Made by a program: the position numbers and the translations under genes. This document shows, in pieces, positions 26,436 through 36,916 of a stretch of DNA of 64,000 bases (within the stretch, counting starts at the first letter, position 1; each line of letters opens with the position of its first letter). The stretch spans positions 65,307 through 129,306 of the forward strand of contig JAUSGT010000003.1 of the NCBI GenBank assembly GCA_030648835.1. Reading direction: 5' to 3'. Below the pieces are notes generated by a model that saw nothing but the letters and a program-made list of their open reading frames with translations, did no database searches and was not told the DNA's origin. Origin of the DNA: Candidatus Moraniibacteriota bacterium. GTDB lineage: Bacteria > Patescibacteriota > Minisyncoccia > Moranbacterales > UBA1568.

Positions 26436-26870
26436 ATGGGAAAGTTTTTAGGGCTATTGGTGGTTCTCGTCGTTCTTGGAGGGGGGTTTCTCATTTTTGG
26501 CAAGGGTGGGCAGAAGGTTGAGGCGCCGGTTATTTCCACACCGACTGCAGAGGTGGGTACACCAGCCGCGCCGGTTGGTACATCAGCCGGGGAGACAAAG
26601 GAAGTGGTTGTGAAGGCGAGCAGCTGGGCGTTTGATCCGGCGGAAATCCGTGTCAAAGAAGGGACAAAGGTAAAAATTACCCTGCAAGGGGTTTCCGGTA
26701 CGCACGCGTTTTCTATCCCCGAATTGGGAGTGAACAGCCAGACGGTGAGCGTGGGGGAAACGGCGACGGTGGAATTTGTAGCCAGTAAGAAAGGAGAATT
26801 CTCCTTTAAATGTTCCGTTTTCTGCGGTGAGGGGCACAGCGGTATGACGGGGAAGCTTATTGTTGAATAA
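26436..26870 (+). CDS. membrane-anchored CuA-type cupredoxin domain protein (cytochrome oxidase subunit II-like copper centre, stand-alone)
   Basis: N-terminal TM; TH(A)FSIPELGV then CSVFCGEGHSGM, matching the CuA ligand pattern H...C-x3-C-G-x2-H-x2-M. Confidence 0.75.
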   Translation: MGKFLGLLVVLVVLGGGFLIFGKGGQKVEAPVISTPTAEVGTPAAPVGTSAGETKEVVVKASSWAFDPAEIRVKEGTKVKITLQGVSGTHAFSIPELGVNSQTVSVGETATVEFVASKKGEFSFKCSVFCGEGHSGMTGKLIVE

Positions 26871-28088: not shown

Positions 28089-28946
28089 ATGAATGGGTGG
28101 CAACATCTTCCGGAAACTATAGATCCGATCGCCGGCACGATCGGATTTTTTTCGGTGCATTGGTATGCGGTGTGGTTTCTCATCGGATTTTTTGTGATGT
28201 TTTTTTTCGCGCTTCATCTGACACAGAGAGGTGTTGTGGCGTATCCTCGGGACGCAGTTTTCGATATGTTGGCAGTCCTTTTTTTCGGCGCGCTCATCGG
28301 TGGGCGTATCGGATATGTGCTTTTGTATCATCCGGATGTTTTTCTCGAGAATCCAATTATGATTTTCTCCCCCTATGATTTCGGGCGCGGGGTATGGACG
28401 GGGCTTTCCGGTATGAGCTATTACGGAGGATTGATCGGGGTAACTGTAGCTTTGGTTTGGTTTAGCGCCAGGAAGAAGCTTTCTTTTTGGAAGATGGCTG
28501 ACTTTGCGGCTCTTTTGGCTCCGGTAGCCATATTTTTTGGACGATTGGGGAATTTTTTCAATGTGGAACTCCCGGGGAGAATAACCGCAGTTCCGTGGGG
28601 GATGGTGTTTCCGGGGACTCTGCCGAGAGGAGTCTTGCGTCACCCATCCACTCTGTACGAAGCTTTTTTTGAGGGGGTGGTTCTTCTCGGCATACTGTTG
28701 TTTCTACGACGCCAGGCGCGTTTTGATGGAGCCCTAGCCTGTTTTTTCTTGGCGCTGTATGCCGGCGTTCGTTTTGGCAGTGAATATTTCCGCGAACCGG
28801 ATCCGCAATTGGGGCTTTTTTTCAATCCGCCAACCGGAGGATTTACTCTCGGGCAGATACTCTCTTTTGCGATGTTGTGCATAACAGTGGTGATTTTCGT
28901 GTGGCTCAAACGAAAAAATCGTGTTAAAATAGTACACAACGCCTAA
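28089..28946 (+). CDS. lgt: prolipoprotein diacylglyceryl transferase
   Basis: Lgt signature FGRLGNFFNVELPGR (G-x-R-x-GNF-x-N-x-E); polytopic membrane protein. Confidence 0.9.
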   Translation: MNGWQHLPETIDPIAGTIGFFSVHWYAVWFLIGFFVMFFFALHLTQRGVVAYPRDAVFDMLAVLFFGALIGGRIGYVLLYHPDVFLENPIMIFSPYDFGRGVWTGLSGMSYYGGLIGVTVALVWFSARKKLSFWKMADFAALLAPVAIFFGRLGNFFNVELPGRITAVPWGMVFPGTLPRGVLRHPSTLYEAFFEGVVLLGILLFLRRQARFDGALACFFLALYAGVRFGSEYFREPDPQLGLFFNPPTGGFTLGQILSFAMLCITVVIFVWLKRKNRVKIVHNA

Positions 28947-28965
28947 ACTATTCTTCATTTTTTCT

Positions 28966-29376
28966 ATGTTCGATAAAAAAATAATCACTGTTCTCGTCGG
29001 GGCGCTGGTGCTTGTGACGGGCTTCGTCTATTGGGGCCTCTCGGATGGGGGGCAGACGGTGGTTGATGATGAGACGGCGATTGTTTACTATTGGGGCGAT
29101 GGCTGTCCGCATTGCAAGATAGTCAGTGATTTTCTCGAGGCGAATGATATCGCCAGCAAAGTTTCCTTTGAAAAGAAAGAAGTCTGGAGCAATAAAACGA
29201 ATGCTAGTGAAATGGGGCGCCGGGCAAAGGCATGTGGTGTCAAGCCGGAGGGGATGGGGGTGCCGTTTGTTTATGGTGGGGATGGAAAATGCTATATTGG
29301 TGAAGTGGATGCCGTCAATTTTTTCAAGGTAAAGAGCGGTATGAGTACGGACACTTCTTCTGAAACACAAAGGTAA
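28966..29376 (+). CDS. secreted/anchored glutaredoxin-like (thioredoxin-fold) protein
   Basis: N-terminal TM; WGDGCPHCK active site; VPFVYGG cis-Pro motif as in glutaredoxins. Confidence 0.65.
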   Translation: MFDKKIITVLVGALVLVTGFVYWGLSDGGQTVVDDETAIVYYWGDGCPHCKIVSDFLEANDIASKVSFEKKEVWSNKTNASEMGRRAKACGVKPEGMGVPFVYGGDGKCYIGEVDAVNFFKVKSGMSTDTSSETQR

Positions 29377-29381
29377 TTTTC

Positions 29382-30353
29382 ATGGAACTTTCTTCTTCTT
29401 ACTCAAACGGGCCTCTGTATAGTCCGCAAAAGCGGGCGCTGGATATTGCCGTATCCAAGAAAACCGTTTTGGTTTTGAAGCCACCACGGAATACCCACAT
29501 GCTGCCGGGATGTTTGCCTGAAGTTTCCAAAAAGCGGGGGCTTGACGGAGCGCAGAAGGAAAAGCAGACGCTTCTCATGCAATTACAAGAGCGTTCATTA
29601 GAAGACGTTCTCTGGCGCTTTTTCCGTAAAGGGGAACTTTACTATCGATTGGTGAAACGTATTTTTTTTCGGCTTATTCCGGACATCACCCCTCACAAAA
29701 TGCTCTACGGCTCCTTGGTGGGCGGGGTGGCGTTTGGGATGGTCTCCATGGCCTTTATGGAACACTTTTTCGGGCCAGGCGTTTTCGCCCGTTCCTCGGA
29801 TTCGGCGCAGGAAGTGACAATTTCGCCAACCGGAGTAGCGGCGGTGTCTCAAACGGACGCAGATATAAAACAAACCGGTTACAATAGCGATACGGACATC
29901 TTTTTTGAATATTTCAATGAAGCTTCGGATGTACAATACAAGGAAACAGTCAAAAATATGGTCAAGGGGTATCCGATTGAAGGAATGCTCCCCTATATTT
30001 TTGAGCAAGACCGACTGACATCCGCTTTTTTGATTGGCATTGCCAAGAAGGAAAGCAACTGGGGCAAGCGTATCCCGGTCTTGGATGGGCAGGACTGTTT
30101 CAACTACTGGGGTTATCGGGGGGTGAGGAGGCTCATGGGGACAGGTGGGCACACTTGTTTCAATAGCAGCAAGGATGCCGTGGAAACGGTTGCCAAGCGT
30201 CTCAATACGCTTATCCATTCGGAAAAATTGAATACTCCGGAGAAAATGATTGTTTGGAAATGCGGATTCAGCTGTAGCGGGCATAGTCGTGAAAGTGTGA
30301 AAAAATGGATCAGCGACGTGGATATGTATTTCAAACAGCTGAGCGACGAATAG
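29382..30353 (+). CDS. membrane-anchored divergent GH73-like (glucosaminidase-type) peptidoglycan hydrolase homologue with Cys-rich C-terminus, paralogue 1
   Basis: TM helix; IAKKESNWGK (E-S-x-W-G of GH73/FlgJ-type), FNYWGYRG, VWKCGFSCSGHS; C-terminal ~170 aa clearly paralogous to the next gene. Confidence 0.5.
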   Translation: MELSSSYSNGPLYSPQKRALDIAVSKKTVLVLKPPRNTHMLPGCLPEVSKKRGLDGAQKEKQTLLMQLQERSLEDVLWRFFRKGELYYRLVKRIFFRLIPDITPHKMLYGSLVGGVAFGMVSMAFMEHFFGPGVFARSSDSAQEVTISPTGVAAVSQTDADIKQTGYNSDTDIFFEYFNEASDVQYKETVKNMVKGYPIEGMLPYIFEQDRLTSAFLIGIAKKESNWGKRIPVLDGQDCFNYWGYRGVRRLMGTGGHTCFNSSKDAVETVAKRLNTLIHSEKLNTPEKMIVWKCGFSCSGHSRESVKKWISDVDMYFKQLSDE

Positions 30354-30428
30354 GAAAAGAGAAAACGTGGGAAATCCCTTGTATAAGGGATTTTTTTGTA
30401 TTTATGGGGATAAAATGATTGACGGAAG

Positions 30429-31271
30429 GTGAAAAACTTGGTATTATTAGGCTTGCGTTTCAAAAGAGTTTTTGCTGTTTTAAGCCATTTCTTTGAGAAG
30501 GCAAAAGTTAGTGTGTCTATGAAAAATTTCTGCCAAAAATTGTTTTTTGCCAAAAGCGGCCTGTATTCTTGTTTGGCCTTTTTTTCTTTTGGATTGATGA
30601 GCGTTTTGCCCACAGCGTCTCAGATGATTCCCGATATTTCTCTTTCGGAAGCCAAATCTGTGGGCATGGTCACGACAGAAGAAGCAAACGAAAACGCTGC
30701 CGAACTTTGCCGCCTGCAGTCGGATGTGGCGTTGTTTACGGCTTTGCAGGAGCAAAAGAATGATATCCTTCAAACTGATACTTTGTGTGATAAAAAAACT
30801 CAAACCATGGTTAAGGCGGTAGGAAAAGGGGATGTCCACTTTGATAAGGCCTTGGGTGATACGATTCGAGAAATGACTATTGGTTACCCGATGGAAAAGA
30901 TGGCGCCGATTATCGCCAGATACGATCGGGAAGTTGCGGCGCTCATAGTAGGCATCGCCAAAAAAGAGAGCGATTGGGGAAAGCACAGCCCAAGCGATCA
31001 AAGTGGAGCGGATTGTTTCAATTATTGGGGGTACAAGGGGGCGGGAAGCCGTGGTGTGGCGATGGGGCATGGCTGTTTTGGTAGCCCTGAAGAAGCGGTG
31101 GTAACTGTCGGTGATCGTCTTCGAAAACTCGTTTCCTTGCGTCAGACAAGCGAACCGAAAAATATGGTTGTTTGGAAATGCGGCTCCAGTTGCAAGGGTC
31201 ACAGCCAAGAGAGCGTGAAAAAATGGGTTGCTGACGTTTCTCTTTATTATCAGCGTATAGTGGCGGAATAA
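30429..31271 (+). CDS. membrane-anchored divergent GH73-like protein, paralogue 2
   Basis: IAKKESDWGK, FNYWGYKG, VWKCGSSCKGHS; N-terminal TM. Confidence 0.5.
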   Translation: MKNLVLLGLRFKRVFAVLSHFFEKAKVSVSMKNFCQKLFFAKSGLYSCLAFFSFGLMSVLPTASQMIPDISLSEAKSVGMVTTEEANENAAELCRLQSDVALFTALQEQKNDILQTDTLCDKKTQTMVKAVGKGDVHFDKALGDTIREMTIGYPMEKMAPIIARYDREVAALIVGIAKKESDWGKHSPSDQSGADCFNYWGYKGAGSRGVAMGHGCFGSPEEAVVTVGDRLRKLVSLRQTSEPKNMVVWKCGSSCKGHSQESVKKWVADVSLYYQRIVAE

Positions 31272-31396: not shown

Positions 31397-32332
31397 ATGT
31401 CGTGGATTGGAGTAGCACTTTTCGGGTATTTTTTCAATGCCGTGACGGCGATTTTCGATAAGTATCTGCTTGCCGAGCGTATCAAGACGCCGGCGGTGTA
31501 TGCTTTTTTTGTTTCTTTGTTCAGTTTGTTCGTTCTCATATTTATTCCTTTCGGATTTCGGTTTTTCAATTGGCAGACAACGGGGATCTTCCTTTTTTCG
31601 GGGGCTTTGTTTCTTTATGGGTTGGTGGCTCTGTATACTGCCGTGAAAGAAAGTGAAATTTCCCGCATAACGCCCTTGGTTGGAACAGTAGTTTCTCTTG
31701 TTGCTATCGGAGTGGGATTTTTTCCAGGAACTTTTTCAGAAACCGCTTTTTCTTTGTCTCATATAGTGGTGCTTGTTTTATTGATCGGCGGTGGATTGCT
31801 TATTTCTTTCGATTTGCCACTGCGAAAACAGGAGCATATCTCTTCTTCTGTCGTTATTGCGGGTGTGGCTATGGGGGTATCGCTGCTTCTTTTGAAATAC
31901 GGATACGCTGATGCGAATTTTGTCAGCGGTTTGATATGGTCGCGGATAGGAATGTTTTTGGCCGGGCTCTCTCTTTTTTTGGTACCAACGTACCGTGGGC
32001 AGATTCTGAATGAAGTGAGCGCATTTTCCGGAATTTCCCGTTCGGTAGTCCATACGGGAGCGATCTTTGTGATGAATAAGCTCTGTGCCGGAGGAGCGAG
32101 CCTCCTCATTATTTATGCGACCTATCTCGGCCCGGTTTCTTTCGTACAGGCGCTTTCCGGGATGCAGTATGTTTTTCTCCTTCTTTTGGCTTTGCCGCTT
32201 TCTTTGCGTTATCCTCAAGTGTTCGGTGAAAGGCTGTTCTTCTGGGATTGGTTTCAGAAGGCTTGCGCAATCATAATTATCGGGCTTGGTTTGTGGCTCT
32301 CTGCCACGAGTGGAATAAAACTACTTGTCTAA
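31397..32332 (+). CDS. 10-TM membrane protein, possibly DMT/EamA-like superfamily
   Basis: Hydropathy only; two 5-TM halves. Confidence 0.4.
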   Translation: MSWIGVALFGYFFNAVTAIFDKYLLAERIKTPAVYAFFVSLFSLFVLIFIPFGFRFFNWQTTGIFLFSGALFLYGLVALYTAVKESEISRITPLVGTVVSLVAIGVGFFPGTFSETAFSLSHIVVLVLLIGGGLLISFDLPLRKQEHISSSVVIAGVAMGVSLLLLKYGYADANFVSGLIWSRIGMFLAGLSLFLVPTYRGQILNEVSAFSGISRSVVHTGAIFVMNKLCAGGASLLIIYATYLGPVSFVQALSGMQYVFLLLLALPLSLRYPQVFGERLFFWDWFQKACAIIIIGLGLWLSATSGIKLLV

Positions 32333-32391: not shown

Positions 32392-33402
32392 ATGCGTCAT
32401 TTGTTGAAAATAATCGGGAGAGTTGTATTGATTATTGTCACATGCACAGCCCTCTTGTTCGGGTATTTCAATCTTCCGGGGCCGGCTCCGCGTGAGGATG
32501 TGCAGTTGGGGATGACGTTTTCGTCACGCTATGCGACAGACCTCGGACTCGATTGGAAACAGACGTATTTGGCGCTTCTTGATGAGATCGGAGTCAAGAA
32601 ATTGCGTCTACCGGTGTATTGGGATCTCGCGGAACCGAAACAGGGCGAGTATGTTTGGGATGATCTTGACTGGCAGCTTAAGGAAGCAGAGAAATATCAG
32701 GTAGAGGTTATTCTCACTATCGGCCAGAAAGTGCCGCGTTGGCCCGAGTGTCATATTCCGGAGTGGGTGGGCGCCGATAGCGAGAAACGACAGACTGCCC
32801 TCTTGTATTTTATGGGTAGGGTGGTGGAGCGTTATAAAAGCAATCAGACTGTAACAATGTGGCAAGTCGAGAACGAACCTTTTTTGGCTTTTGGGATATG
32901 CCCACCACTCGATAAAAATTTTTTGAAGCAAGAAGTAGCTTTCGTAAAAACACTGGATCCAATTCGTAAAGTACTCCTGACGGATAGCGGGGAACTTTCA
33001 TTTTGGTATGGCGCGGCCAGTCTGGGGGATGTTTTCGGTACGACGATGTATCGGCGTATTTGGAGTCCAAAAGTCGGGGGGTATTTTACCTATCCGATTG
33101 GGCCGAATTTTTTCCGGGTCAAAGCGTTCCTCATCAATATCCTCGCGCATCAGTACAACATTATGGTTATCGAATTGCAGGCGGAACCATGGGCATCCGG
33201 CTGGATAGTCGATATTCCGCTTGAAGAGCAGTTTCGTACAATGGATGAGACCAAACTGCGGGAAAATGTAAAATACGCCAAGCAAGTCGGATTTGGGGAA
33301 GTGTATCTATGGGGTGGAGAATGGTGGTATTGGCTCAAAGAAAAAAAGAATTACCCGGCTCTTTGGGAAACGGGAAAGGAACTTTTTCGTGAACAGCGGT
33401 AA
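32392..33402 (+). CDS. membrane-anchored glycoside hydrolase, clan GH-A (GH5-like TIM barrel)
   Basis: N-terminal TM; catalytic acid/base motif WQVENEPF; second Glu in IELQAEPW. Confidence 0.6.
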   Translation: MRHLLKIIGRVVLIIVTCTALLFGYFNLPGPAPREDVQLGMTFSSRYATDLGLDWKQTYLALLDEIGVKKLRLPVYWDLAEPKQGEYVWDDLDWQLKEAEKYQVEVILTIGQKVPRWPECHIPEWVGADSEKRQTALLYFMGRVVERYKSNQTVTMWQVENEPFLAFGICPPLDKNFLKQEVAFVKTLDPIRKVLLTDSGELSFWYGAASLGDVFGTTMYRRIWSPKVGGYFTYPIGPNFFRVKAFLINILAHQYNIMVIELQAEPWASGWIVDIPLEEQFRTMDETKLRENVKYAKQVGFGEVYLWGGEWWYWLKEKKNYPALWETGKELFREQR

Positions 33403-34072: not shown

Positions 34073-35542
34073 ATGTTTCGACGGATCACTTTACCTCTTA
34101 TCATTTTGGCGATTTTTGGAATTTTCATAGCGAGATGGCAAGGAGCTGCTCTTTTTGCGAATCTTGTGTGGGCAGAAGATACTTCTCTTTTCCCCAAGAC
34201 AACATCCTCCCTGTCATTGCCCATCAGCACGCGATCAACAAGGGTTGAAACAGAGACAACCTCCGGGCAATCTGTTCCAGATGTAACGAATACGACGGTT
34301 GCGACACCAACATTCACTATTCCGACCTCGACTACCGCTATGCGATCGACAAACAGCACAACAAGCACAACTTCCGGGCAGACTCCTTCCAGTATTGTGT
34401 CACCAACAACTATTCCAACTACCAATACACAATCGATAAGCAGCGGGACAGGCACAACTTCCGGGCAGACTACTTCCAATACGGTGTCACCAGTAACTGC
34501 CCCGATTACCGCTACGCGAGCGACAAACAGCGGAGCGGGAACATCGTATGTCGCTCCGGTATCAGGCGCGGTGCAAGTGACAACAACAACTCCAAATGCT
34601 GAGCGTGTGGAATACTATGGTCAAAATCAACAGGGGAACACCGAAACATATTTAGGCGCGGCGGAAAATACGTCCTCTGGGACGTGGAGTCTGGATATCA
34701 ATGCGGCGAATCAGTTGCCGAACGGTGTTTATGATGTCTCCGCGAGAGCTGAACAGAGAGACGGAACGGTGGTAGAGAGCCGGCCCGCTCAATTGTATGT
34801 GGCAACTCCCGAAAATCCGATTTCACAAGAGGAAAAAGAGGTGTTTAAGAATTCAGAGAGAGATACGGATGGTGATGGTATTTCCGATAAGGAAGAAATA
34901 CGACTTGGGCTCAATCCAAAATCGGCCGATACCGACAAAGACGGTTTTATTGATGGTGACGAAATCAAAAACGGGTTTGACCCACTGAAGTTTTCGAGCG
35001 GTGATAAGAGTGACAAGATAGTTTTTGAATCGCCAAAAGAGCTTGTAACAAGTACTGGTGGGGGTGAGCCAATCAAGGAGAAAGAGAGTGACAAACGTTT
35101 CAGAGTAGATATGATAGAGCTGGTTGAAGCAGGCAGTGACGGGAAAAAGGCGACAAGATTTTCAGGGAAGGCTTTGCCAAATATGTTTATTACACTTTAT
35201 ATTTACAGCGATCCGATCATTGTGACGGTAAAAACGGACGAGGATGGCAACTGGACGTATGATTTGGACAAGGAATTGCCGGATGGCGATCATGAAATCT
35301 ACGTAGCCGTGACGGATAATGTTGGAAAGATTTCCGCGCAAAGTGAGGCCATCCCTTTCGTAAAGACCGCTCAAGCTGTCGCGATAAAACCGGCGGCTGC
35401 CGCTTCGGCAGAGGCTTTGCAGAACGCTTCGCCACTCGAGCGTTCACGGACAGAGTTTATCATCATAGCCATCATTATAGCCATGAGTTTCTTGGGGATA
35501 GCACTGGTAGTGATCGGCCGCAAGTCATCCATAATTCAATAA
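34073..35542 (+). CDS. cell-surface protein: signal/TM, Thr/Ser-rich ~40-aa repeats, Ig-like domains, thrombospondin type-3-like Ca-binding repeats, C-terminal TM anchor
   Basis: Repeats TTSGQ(S/T)...; DTDGDGISDKEE...DTDKDGFIDGDE; two beta-sandwich-like segments; terminal FIIIAIIIAMSFLGIALVVIG. Confidence 0.7.
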   Translation: MFRRITLPLIILAIFGIFIARWQGAALFANLVWAEDTSLFPKTTSSLSLPISTRSTRVETETTSGQSVPDVTNTTVATPTFTIPTSTTAMRSTNSTTSTTSGQTPSSIVSPTTIPTTNTQSISSGTGTTSGQTTSNTVSPVTAPITATRATNSGAGTSYVAPVSGAVQVTTTTPNAERVEYYGQNQQGNTETYLGAAENTSSGTWSLDINAANQLPNGVYDVSARAEQRDGTVVESRPAQLYVATPENPISQEEKEVFKNSERDTDGDGISDKEEIRLGLNPKSADTDKDGFIDGDEIKNGFDPLKFSSGDKSDKIVFESPKELVTSTGGGEPIKEKESDKRFRVDMIELVEAGSDGKKATRFSGKALPNMFITLYIYSDPIIVTVKTDEDGNWTYDLDKELPDGDHEIYVAVTDNVGKISAQSEAIPFVKTAQAVAIKPAAAASAEALQNASPLERSRTEFIIIAIIIAMSFLGIALVVIGRKSSIIQ

Positions 35543-36916
35543 ATGGCGTTCATGTTGAAAGGATCATTTAAAAAAGGTTTGGATTTTACAAAACGGAACC
35601 CGACAATTCTCTACTCGTTGTTTTTGATCGTTGCCGTGACCGGAACCTTGTTTTTTAACAGTTACTATTCCCTCCAAAAATTTCAGGTGACATCCGACGC
35701 GCTTTTGAAAAGCAAAGCGGTACTGGCGGAAAATATCTTTCGTATTTTGGGGAGCGATATTCTGAAGGACCCCACCCTGTTGCAGAACAAGCTTGATCGG
35801 ATACAAGAAGAGAACAGCGATGTGACGAATGTGGCGGTTTTTACGCGTCCAACCGATGAAGCCCCTTTCTCTGTCGTCGCGTCGACTGATCATGAAATTA
35901 TTGGGACGGTTGTGGAAGAGACGTCACTGCCGTATCTTATCGCATGGCAGGACGCGCGGATCGTTCCGGCATTTCTCACCAATGAGAATGGCAAGCGTTA
36001 CTGGAATGTCATTAAGAAAGTGACCGATACGGATGGTCGCGGATTGGGGCTGGTACTTTTTCAACTCTCACTTGAAGAACACGATGCTTTCGTGCGAAAA
36101 GCGATTTTGCAGGTGTATGGTGTCGCTATTCTTTCACTCATCCTCGTATTGCTTCTTCTTATGAATCATATGCGCTTCTTCCGTTACGCTTTGCGCGTTA
36201 CAAAATTGGAAGAAGTGGATCGGATGAAAGATGACTTCATTTCCATGGCGAGCCACGAGCTGAAGACGCCACTCACGGTGTTGCGCGGGTACATCGATCT
36301 TTTGCGGGATTCCATCGTGAAGCCCAGCGCCCCGGAAACGGAAAAACAGACGACTGAATATTTGGGGAATATGGATACTTCTCTTCTGCGCCTAAACAAT
36401 CTTGTGGAAGATATTTTGAATGTTTCTCGTCTCGAACAAAACCGTCTGCCCATCGGGTTGCAATCTGTCGATATAGGTATTGTGCTAGGTGATTTGGCGA
36501 AAGAATTTTCACTGCTTGCCAAAAATAAAGGACTCGTATTCCAGTACGAACCAGAAGTAATGCCGCCGGTTACCGCTGATCCGGAGCGTATGAAACAGAT
36601 ACTCATCAATCTTTTGGGTAATGCCGTAAAGTACACGGCAGCGGGGAAAGTGGAGCTTTCCGCCAAGGAAGTGGAGGACACCGTTGTCGTGACGGTAGCC
36701 GATACGGGGTTCGGTATTTCTTCTCAATCTCTCGAACACTTGTTTTCGAAATTCTATCGCGTGAAAACCGACCAAACGGCCACAATTTCCGGCAGCGGCC
36801 TCGGTCTCTGGATTTCCCGAGAAATTGCGCGTAAGATGGGGGGGGACCTGACGGTTGAAAGCATCGAGGGTGTCGGATCACACTTCCGTTTGCGTTTGAA
36901 GAAACACTCGAAGTAA
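35543..36916 (+). CDS. sensor histidine kinase (2 TM + periplasmic sensor, HisKA, HATPase_c); no response regulator nearby
   Basis: H-box SHELKTPL, N-box LLGNAVKYT, G-boxes DTGFGI / GSGLGL; start ATG immediately follows the stop of the surface protein (TAAATG). Confidence 0.85.
   Translation: MAFMLKGSFKKGLDFTKRNPTILYSLFLIVAVTGTLFFNSYYSLQKFQVTSDALLKSKAVLAENIFRILGSDILKDPTLLQNKLDRIQEENSDVTNVAVFTRPTDEAPFSVVASTDHEIIGTVVEETSLPYLIAWQDARIVPAFLTNENGKRYWNVIKKVTDTDGRGLGLVLFQLSLEEHDAFVRKAILQVYGVAILSLILVLLLLMNHMRFFRYALRVTKLEEVDRMKDDFISMASHELKTPLTVLRGYIDLLRDSIVKPSAPETEKQTTEYLGNMDTSLLRLNNLVEDILNVSRLEQNRLPIGLQSVDIGIVLGDLAKEFSLLAKNKGLVFQYEPEVMPPVTADPERMKQILINLLGNAVKYTAAGKVELSAKEVEDTVVVTVADTGFGISSQSLEHLFSKFYRVKTDQTATISGSGLGLWISREIARKMGGDLTVESIEGVGSHFRLRLKKHSK

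Follow-up and report, generated by a model that had tools for sequence, protein, structure and literature searches.

A pair of membrane-anchored, cysteine-rich Moranbacteria proteins as probable, lineage-restricted GH73/lysozyme-like peptidoglycan glycosidases

The window analysed here (64,000 nucleotides of contig JAUSGT010000003.1, assembly GCA_030648835.1) is a chromosomal segment of a Candidatus Moranbacteria (Patescibacteria; candidate phyla radiation, CPR) metagenome-assembled genome (MAG). On its plus strand it carries two neighbouring genes, paralogue A (29382-30353; 323 aa) and paralogue B (30519-31271; 250 aa), whose products share a C-terminal domain. With a probability of about 0.65, judged from sequence and model comparisons, A and B are outward-facing, membrane-tethered enzymes of the lysozyme superfamily that would cut the glycan strands of the cell's own peptidoglycan and would form a reduced and diverged offshoot of glycoside hydrolase family 73 (GH73). 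They are best described as lineage-restricted, reduced, putatively Cys-stapled GH73/lysozyme-like peptidoglycan glycosidases, probably housekeeping autolysins, and not as a new kind of system. CPR genomes are largely unannotated, and wall growth and splitting in these tiny, probably episymbiotic cells are poorly known; a testable function, glycan-strand cleavage, is hereby proposed for two core 'hypothetical' proteins of Moranbacteria with >4,000 database entries.

Only the C-terminal 142 aa of A and B align with each other (48% identity, E=2e-48; BLASTP), a similarity far beyond chance, and the N-terminal parts are unrelated. Both points had been made in a preliminary description of this locus, and the motifs it listed, ESxWG, NYWGY[RK]G and VWKCG[FS]SC[SK]GHS[RQ]ESVKKW, were found in both proteins. 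The shared domain occupies residues ~186-323 of A (29937-30353, plus strand), where hhalign to FlgJ and the conservation table support it, and residues ~113-250 of B (30855-31271, plus strand), where it is supported by Foldseek matches in PDB and BFVD and by weak NCBIfam FlgJ matches.

The GH73-like reading of this domain is supported at the level of predicted fold and of catalytic-Glu register. The GH73 fold is lysozyme-like, with an alpha-helical lobe packed on a beta-lobe (PMC4752226). In the AF2 model of B, the predicted local distance difference test score (pLDDT) is mostly >90 across the domain, and a Foldseek search of PDB with this model returned GH73 structures at all of ranks 1-7 (probability 0.85-1.0). 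The top matches were FlgJ of Sphingomonas (3vwo, 2zyc and 3k3t) and of Salmonella (5dn4 and 5dn5) and Ecd09610 of C. difficile (8yxk), the last with a template modelling (TM) score of 0.61 and a root-mean-square deviation of 3.7 Å. When BFVD was searched with the same model, the named top matches were a phage glucosaminidase, a FlgJ-muramidase, cystovirus P5 and GH19 proteins. At the profile level, hhalign of the family against E. coli FlgJ gave probabilities of 68-75% (E 2.7e-5 to 4.9e-5), and a 150-member profile compared with three FlgJ sequences gave 79% (E=1.6e-5, 109 columns). The controls were clean, as 30 shuffled FlgJ sequences reached at most 3.9% probability (lowest E 0.011) and MltG, EmtA, hen lysozyme (HEWL) and T4 lysozyme at most 0.3%. 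The alignment pairs the Glu of the family motif A-K-K-E-S-x-W-G with that of A-A-L-E-S-G-W-G in FlgJ, the residue mutated in PDB 3k3t (E185A; the chain reads AALATGWG). On the central helix of GH73 enzymes, the invariant general acid Glu is E184 of StFlgJ (PMC4752226), and the same residue is numbered E185 in SpFlgJ. The putative general acid is accordingly placed at E224 of A (codon 30051-30053) and E150 of B (codon 30966-30968). The GH73/FlgJ-type assignment first offered for these proteins is thereby supported by glycosidase-fold matches and by an invariant Glu that falls on the FlgJ general acid; its description as weak by sequence was equally apt, Pfam and NCBIfam both staying below curated thresholds.

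Several results weigh against the assignment. The Foldseek E-values of B within ranks 1-7 are modest (2e-3 to 4e-2), and below rank 7 all matches have E>1. The AF2 domain-only model of A has a pLDDT of 71 and no significant fold match, its best match (E=2) being a lytic transglycosylase (LT), Cj0843 of C. jejuni, with GH73 structures at ranks 6 and 27. The confident hhalign columns comprise ~37 residues around the Glu, the C-terminal half being of low confidence, and the confidence of the B model falls to 56-67 around its CxxxC. No Pfam family matched A or B, and Glucosaminidase (PF01832) was met in one of 38 members at E=0.22; NCBIfam FlgJ models matched the Glu stretch of B only below threshold (E=0.003-0.037; 13.9-16.9 bits against cut-offs of 193-606). 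Searches of PDB sequences with single sequences and a profile HMM gave only spurious matches (RFC, VP35), a PHROGs scan of A and B gave nothing at useful thresholds, and an exhaustive HMMER profile search found no bridge to canonical GH73, so that the family is sharply bounded. Two defining GH73 features, the hairpin acid and recognition by a curated model, are lacking.

The departures from GH73 became evident when 150 diverse family representatives were aligned to the domain profile. The alignment is strictly invariant at P, E-S, G, P, N (of N-Y-W-G), G, C, W-K-C-G, C and W. Among carboxylates this applies to the motif Glu alone: no other Asp or Glu position is invariant in the 150 representatives, and the D of D-C-F-N-Y-W-G is kept in <90% of them. 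In hhalign, a deletion of ~18 residues falls exactly at the mobile beta-hairpin of FlgJ, TEITTTEYENGEAKKV. In GH73 enzymes this hairpin bears the second catalytic Glu (E223 of StFlgJ, E156 of Auto), which is needed in several members but is not universal; some GH73 enzymes are without a hairpin acid, and for these substrate-assisted catalysis is possible (PMC4752226). A protein without the hairpin could thus still function like a GH73 enzyme, and the resulting single-carboxylate site is equally compatible with lytic-transglycosylase chemistry. Furthermore, W-K-C-G-S-S-C-x-G-H lies opposite A-G-Y-A-T-D-P-x-Y of FlgJ (hhalign, with low per-column confidence), and no conserved Tyr is present there; G-Y-A-T-D is visible in the FlgJ sequences. 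The Tyr of GYATD lies near the active site and is catalytically important.

Compared with GH73 (FlgJ C-terminal domain, Auto, T. maritima TM0633 and Ecd09610; PF01832), the A/B family is thus alike in its predicted lysozyme-like fold, in a central helix x-x-E-[ST]-x-W-G with the general-acid Glu in register, in the G-x-x-x-[YF]-N-x-[FW]-G strand and F/Y-x-S-x-E-E-A helix that follow, and in its likely substrate, peptidoglycan glycan strands. It differs in lacking the ~18 hairpin residues together with the second catalytic Glu (E223 of StFlgJ), in apparently carrying WKCGxSC in the GYATD region, in its four invariant Cys, in having its domain always C-terminal to an N-terminal membrane anchor, and in being found essentially in Moranbacteria only. 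With the hairpin deleted and the general acid strictly kept, the family is a natural experiment on the need for the GH73 hairpin carboxylate.

A, B and the glutaredoxin (Grx)-like protein encoded immediately upstream of A (28966-29376, plus strand; 136 aa) each have a single hydrophobic segment, flanked by positive charge on its N-terminal side and by acidic residues on its C-terminal side. This N-in/C-out bias predicts an extracytoplasmic position for the thioredoxin fold and for the conserved C-terminal domains of A and B. In A, a basic, poorly conserved N-terminal part of ~105 aa, predicted to be cytoplasmic, precedes one highly conserved transmembrane helix (residues ~107-127) and a short linker. 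In B, an N-terminal signal anchor or signal peptide (residues ~15-33) is joined to the domain by a linker of ~80 aa with a predicted helix. The linker of the B family, but not that of A, carries two additional near-invariant Cys, C64 (30708-30710) and C90 (30786-30788), in the context E-R-C-R-W-Q-x-D ... P-C-E and with one of the two on a long helix in the prediction; their role may be to build a third disulfide or a stalk. B was also considered as a lipoprotein substrate of the adjacent Lgt and rejected, as the Cys of its 'GLYSC' lies on the N-terminal side of the hydrophobic segment and the family does not conserve it.

Database searches retrieved 3,031 homologues of A, which form an orthologous group of their own conserved over the full length, and 1,309 of B, all of them 'hypothetical' and without a Pfam domain. 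Named homologues belong to Moranbacteria or to unclassified Patescibacteria. When the shared-domain profile was run with HMMER against 1.84 billion cluster representatives, 310 clusters were found at E<=1e-3, 236 of them at <=1e-30, and the domain was always C-terminal, in proteins of 139-465 aa. Relatives were also sought in one genome per GTDB species: 327 stretches encode one, and the best 80 of these 327 are Moranbacteria MAGs or MAGs collinear with them. The unannotated family is hence essentially confined to Moranbacteria, in keeping with its earlier characterization as lineage-specific, and no description of it was found in the literature searched. Many MAGs labelled 'uncultured Bdellovibrionales bacterium' (third-party annotation records; L011-L013, L016, L018-L021 and ~30 more) carry A and B in a block collinear with that of the window, and this label is almost certainly wrong.

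Synteny was examined by tblastn of window genes against 82 related loci. A block of ~10 kb is collinear, in the order mnmA-mutY-AI2E-lgt-(grx)-A-B-membrane protein-TIM-barrel glycosidase-spoU, and B was found in 48 of the 50 loci that extend past it. In two loci, of the order '... grx A memb311 GH_TIM spoU', B was undetected between A and the membrane protein with both flanks present; B may have been lost there, as a rare event, or may have diverged too far for tblastn to detect. Both paralogues count as core genes. Elsewhere the window encodes housekeeping functions: the SUF system of Fe-S assembly, the biosynthesis of pyrimidines and purines, several aminoacyl-tRNA synthetases, TGT, RecO and a histidine kinase. 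Among the window genes scanned, none coded for DsbB, VKOR or DsbD, and none belonged to a mobile element. Such surroundings agree with vertical inheritance of A and B as core genes rather than with an accessory locus or one devoted to attacking a host.

In the mechanism proposed from these features, the conserved domain of A and B would sit outside the membrane on its N-terminal anchor, with the Glu of A-K-K-E-S-x-W-G as the general acid. With a single carboxylate, cleavage would proceed by substrate-assisted hydrolysis or by an intramolecular attack of the lytic-transglycosylase type. The four Cys would pair into two disulfides that hold together the shortened beta-lobe and the C-terminal helices, the alternative being a Cys4 site that binds metal. 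Since A and B are near-universal, single-copy and in a conserved housekeeping block, they would act as housekeeping autolysins for wall growth or cell separation, and the ~105-aa basic cytoplasmic tail of A could be a handle for regulation from inside the cell.

Other activities of the same domain have to be weighed. It is unlikely that A and B share the fold but are LTs proper, in which attack by the C6-OH of N-acetylmuramic acid (MurNAc) would leave 1,6-anhydroMurNAc ends, the single Glu would serve as acid and then as base, and the two proteins would function like membrane-bound LTs. The one invariant carboxylate and the deleted hairpin acid speak for this chemistry, as do a weak hhalign alignment with Slt70 (20.7%, E=1.1e-3) and the best, non-significant fold match of the A model, Cj0843. 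Yet the Slt70 alignment covers 21 columns, just the catalytic E-S helix IARQESAWNP, whereas the FlgJ match is much stronger and longer (36-109 columns) and runs through the GH73-type G-x-x-x-Y-N-x-F-G strand; moreover, no GLMQ-type motif of family 1 LTs follows the ES motif, MltG and EmtA give nothing in hhalign, and the significant-probability fold matches of the confident B model are all GH73. Relative to family 1 LTs (SLT; E. coli Slt70), therefore, the A/B family shares the superfamily and the single catalytic Glu in an E-S motif where a helix ends, and differs in the shortness of the matched stretch, in the missing downstream LT motifs and in LT fold matches that begin at E>=2. That the domain acts on another glycan (a host wall, a chitin-like polymer or a surface layer), or is a non-catalytic glycan-binding module, is highly improbable. 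Moranbacteria are presumed episymbionts, GH19 chitinases are among the weak fold matches and a predicted secreted TIM-barrel glycosidase is encoded two genes downstream, all of which would suit such a role. However, short linkers tether A and B to the membrane of the cell that makes them, and catalysis is the role to which an invariant Glu points. In fold and profile searches the best matches are peptidoglycan-specific GH73 enzymes, those to GH19 having E>1, and both genes are core, syntenic and in a housekeeping region. The host-glycan remodelling envisaged in the preliminary description finds no support, given the same tethering and genomic setting. Cleavage of the cell's own peptidoglycan by GH73-like enzymes remains the preferred reading.

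The genes upstream of B form a compact series. All four plus-strand open reading frames (ORFs) first listed for this region were recovered by an ORF check: lgt (28089-28946), the Grx-like gene, A and the frame of B. Prolipoprotein diacylglyceryl transferase, the product of lgt, matches Pfam LGT (PF01790, E=2.3e-60) over positions 1-240 of 240, that is, over its full length, and lgt is syntenic in every related locus that reaches that far. Between lgt and grx lie 19 bp, between grx and A 5 bp, and between A and B 165 bp. A consensus scan placed a terminator-like hairpin of 12 pairs with a T-run at 30369-30396 and a sigma-70-like promoter (TTGACG-17-TATTAT with an extended TG; 10/12) at 30419-30447, both on the plus strand and both as pattern matches only; the latter is the best promoter match of the region and lies 5′ of the ATG of B. 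With the hairpin after A followed by a promoter-like site before B, the arrangement suggests that lgt, grx and A form one transcription unit and B a second, the Grx-like gene probably being co-transcribed with lgt and A. The mechanical ORF of B at 30429-31271 (280 aa) exists as originally given, but its real start is most likely the ATG at 30519 (250 aa) and not the GTG at 30429, since the ATG is used by the NCBI record and by the orthologues, and since the hairpin and the promoter-like site lie upstream of it, the latter overlapping the GTG. The NCBI records Q7S04_04700 and Q7S04_04690, on one contig of 150.7 kb, are 100% identical to B and to the Grx-like protein, respectively.

The Grx-like protein, which carries a CPHC motif, has weak matches to Pfam Glutaredoxin (PF00462; E=3.7e-4, 21.1 bits against a gathering cut-off of 22.9) and Thioredoxin (E=3.4e-3, also below the cut-off) and matches the NCBIfam YruB-type glutaredoxin-like model at E=5.6e-5; several orthologues have a precomputed PF00462 match and are named glutaredoxin in their source records. 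Its hydrophobic segment (residues 6-24; N-in/C-out) puts the domain in a predicted extracytoplasmic location that is atypical for glutaredoxins. Four Cys are invariant among 54 orthologues, including a second pair, C90 and C109, together with a GVP cis-Pro loop, and CPHC is kept in 50 of ~54 orthologues at this position. The active site of E. coli DsbA has the same motif. With DsbA and other extracytoplasmic thioredoxin-fold oxidoreductases the protein thus shares CPHC, the predicted outside location and the cis-Pro loop (GVP); it differs in a soluble part of ~100 aa, of glutaredoxin size and without room for the DsbA helical insertion, in best family matches that are glutaredoxin-like, in its second invariant Cys pair, and in having no DsbB or VKOR partner among the window genes scanned. 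It is probably a small, membrane-anchored, outward-facing, general thiol:disulfide oxidoreductase and not a dedicated partner of A and B, which it may oxidize among other exported proteins. Of 77 loci, 23 lack the gene between lgt and A, and most of these have an lgt-to-A gap in tblastn that is far too short for a 135-aa ORF; this loss is not confined to divergent lineages, and A and B there keep all four Cys. The family is also small, at 121 proteins against 3,031 for A and 1,309 for B.

Distant homologues of the Grx-like protein (38-48% identity) have a different conserved context with no A/B-like genes; the two genes 3′ of them were tested as relatives of A and B and proved unrelated. In other Patescibacteria, a five-gene cluster that is not annotated as a system recurs (L084:3717-6399; L087:373-3189; L085:5001-6486; L088:41-1826); it encodes a DsbD_2-cupredoxin fusion, an HMA copper chaperone, the CPHC Grx-like protein, a multi-pass protein with a signal peptide and an N-terminal CP[VI]C motif, and a soluble protein of ~178 aa ending in DCCRE. 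In L084 it adjoins a copper P-type ATPase, a cupredoxin and a CsoR-type repressor, and by its gene content the cluster looks like an uncharacterised extracytoplasmic copper/thiol-redox module. The distant homologues hence neighbour DsbD_2, a membrane protein of the reductive pathway, and copper-handling genes, a context more reminiscent of Scs-type copper-stress redox systems than of DsbA. Neither the window nor the Moranbacteria loci contain the DsbD_2 and HMA partners. Cupredoxin domains, which are found with the distant homologues too, occur in the window as well: a 144-aa membrane-anchored cupredoxin (26436-26870, plus strand; Cupredoxin_1, E=1.4e-11) is encoded between a mutY-like gene and an AI-2E transporter. 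Detected in just 5 of the 82 related loci, it represents a variable insertion into a gene order that is otherwise rigid.

The four domain Cys (C239, C259, C294 and C298 of A; C166, C186, C221 and C225 of B) are kept in 149-150 of the 150 representatives. A conserved Cys4-His tail foreign to GH73 had been described for these proteins; the four invariant Cys do set the family apart, but only C294 and C298 of A are in the tail, C239 (DCFNYWG) and C259 (H-x-C-F) being in the core, and the His residues (His257 and His301 of A) vary, with H to Y in 54/150 representatives at one site and H to D, T, Q or P in 30/150 at the other, so that a Cys4-His unit is unsupported. Two disulfides are favoured instead, because the domains are predicted to be extracytoplasmic, because each of the three exported proteins has an even number of conserved Cys (A 4, B 6, Grx-like protein 4) and because the His residues are not conserved. 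The B model, with beta-bridges at residues 165 and 184-185 beside C166 and C186, suggests that C166 and C186 pair across strands at the base of the shortened hairpin; as all four Cys are invariant, covariation cannot assign the pairs.

A structural metal bound by these Cys (a Cys4 Zn site) in place of disulfides is possible, if on balance unlikely. The absolute invariance of the four Cys would suit it, as would the persistence of A and B in genomes without the oxidoreductase at the locus, and many Patescibacteria live in anoxic groundwater, where disulfides are less favoured. The predicted location of the domains outside the membrane stands against it, the spacing C-x19-C ... C-x3-C is atypical of a Zn-knuckle, the candidate His ligands are not conserved, and even Cys counts such as those of the three exported proteins are typical of disulfide-bonded exported proteins. 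Nor is it likely, and rather less so, that lgt, the Grx-like gene, A and B constitute a dedicated redox-controlled module in which the CPHC protein switches A and B through the Cys4 cluster, as the preliminary description had implied in grouping the four genes as an envelope module with the adjacent glutaredoxin as redox partner. The 19-bp and 5-bp gaps suggest co-transcription of lgt, grx and A, the Grx-like and Cys-rich domains are all predicted outside the membrane, and both CPHC and the four Cys of A and B are strongly kept. However, the whole mnmA-spoU block is collinear, so that adjacency reflects a lineage-wide conserved gene order and is uninformative about a module. B moreover appears to be transcribed separately, the Grx-like gene is missing from 23 of 77 loci without loss of any A/B Cys, its family is small, and its distant homologues stand with DsbD_2-cupredoxin, HMA and CPxC proteins, a copper ATPase and CsoR, and with no A/B-like genes. 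More ambitiously, A and B might found a CAZy-level family or subfamily of their own in which the Cys cluster (W-K-C-G-x-S-C / D-C / H-x-C) replaces the hairpin acid as a redox or metal switch, set by the CPHC protein as a co-transcribed, outward-facing oxidoreductase, and gates the autolysin. This is very doubtful; if true, these ultra-small bacteria would control wall hydrolysis through thiols in a way of their own. A regulatory Cys cluster would be a new way of restraining an autolysin, whereas a purely structural one would make the finding a useful but ordinary gain in annotation.

Downstream of B, the same strand encodes further proteins of note. Directly 3′ of B lies the gene of a 311-aa multi-pass membrane protein (31397-32332), syntenic across Moranbacteria, for which no Pfam or NCBIfam match was obtained even at E<=1-10. 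It is followed by a 336-aa protein (32392-33402) with an N-terminal hydrophobic segment and weak matches to TIM-barrel glycosidases (Glyco_hydro_42, E=3.6e-8; GH5 and GH2 weaker), possibly another enzyme of this syntenic block that faces outward and acts on glycans. Further on, 34073-35542 encodes a Thr/Ser-rich protein of 489 aa that is likely displayed at the surface: it combines a bacterial TSP3 repeat with a Big_13 Ig-like domain and carries a hydrophobic anchor at its C-terminus. A histidine kinase gene (35543-36916) follows it.

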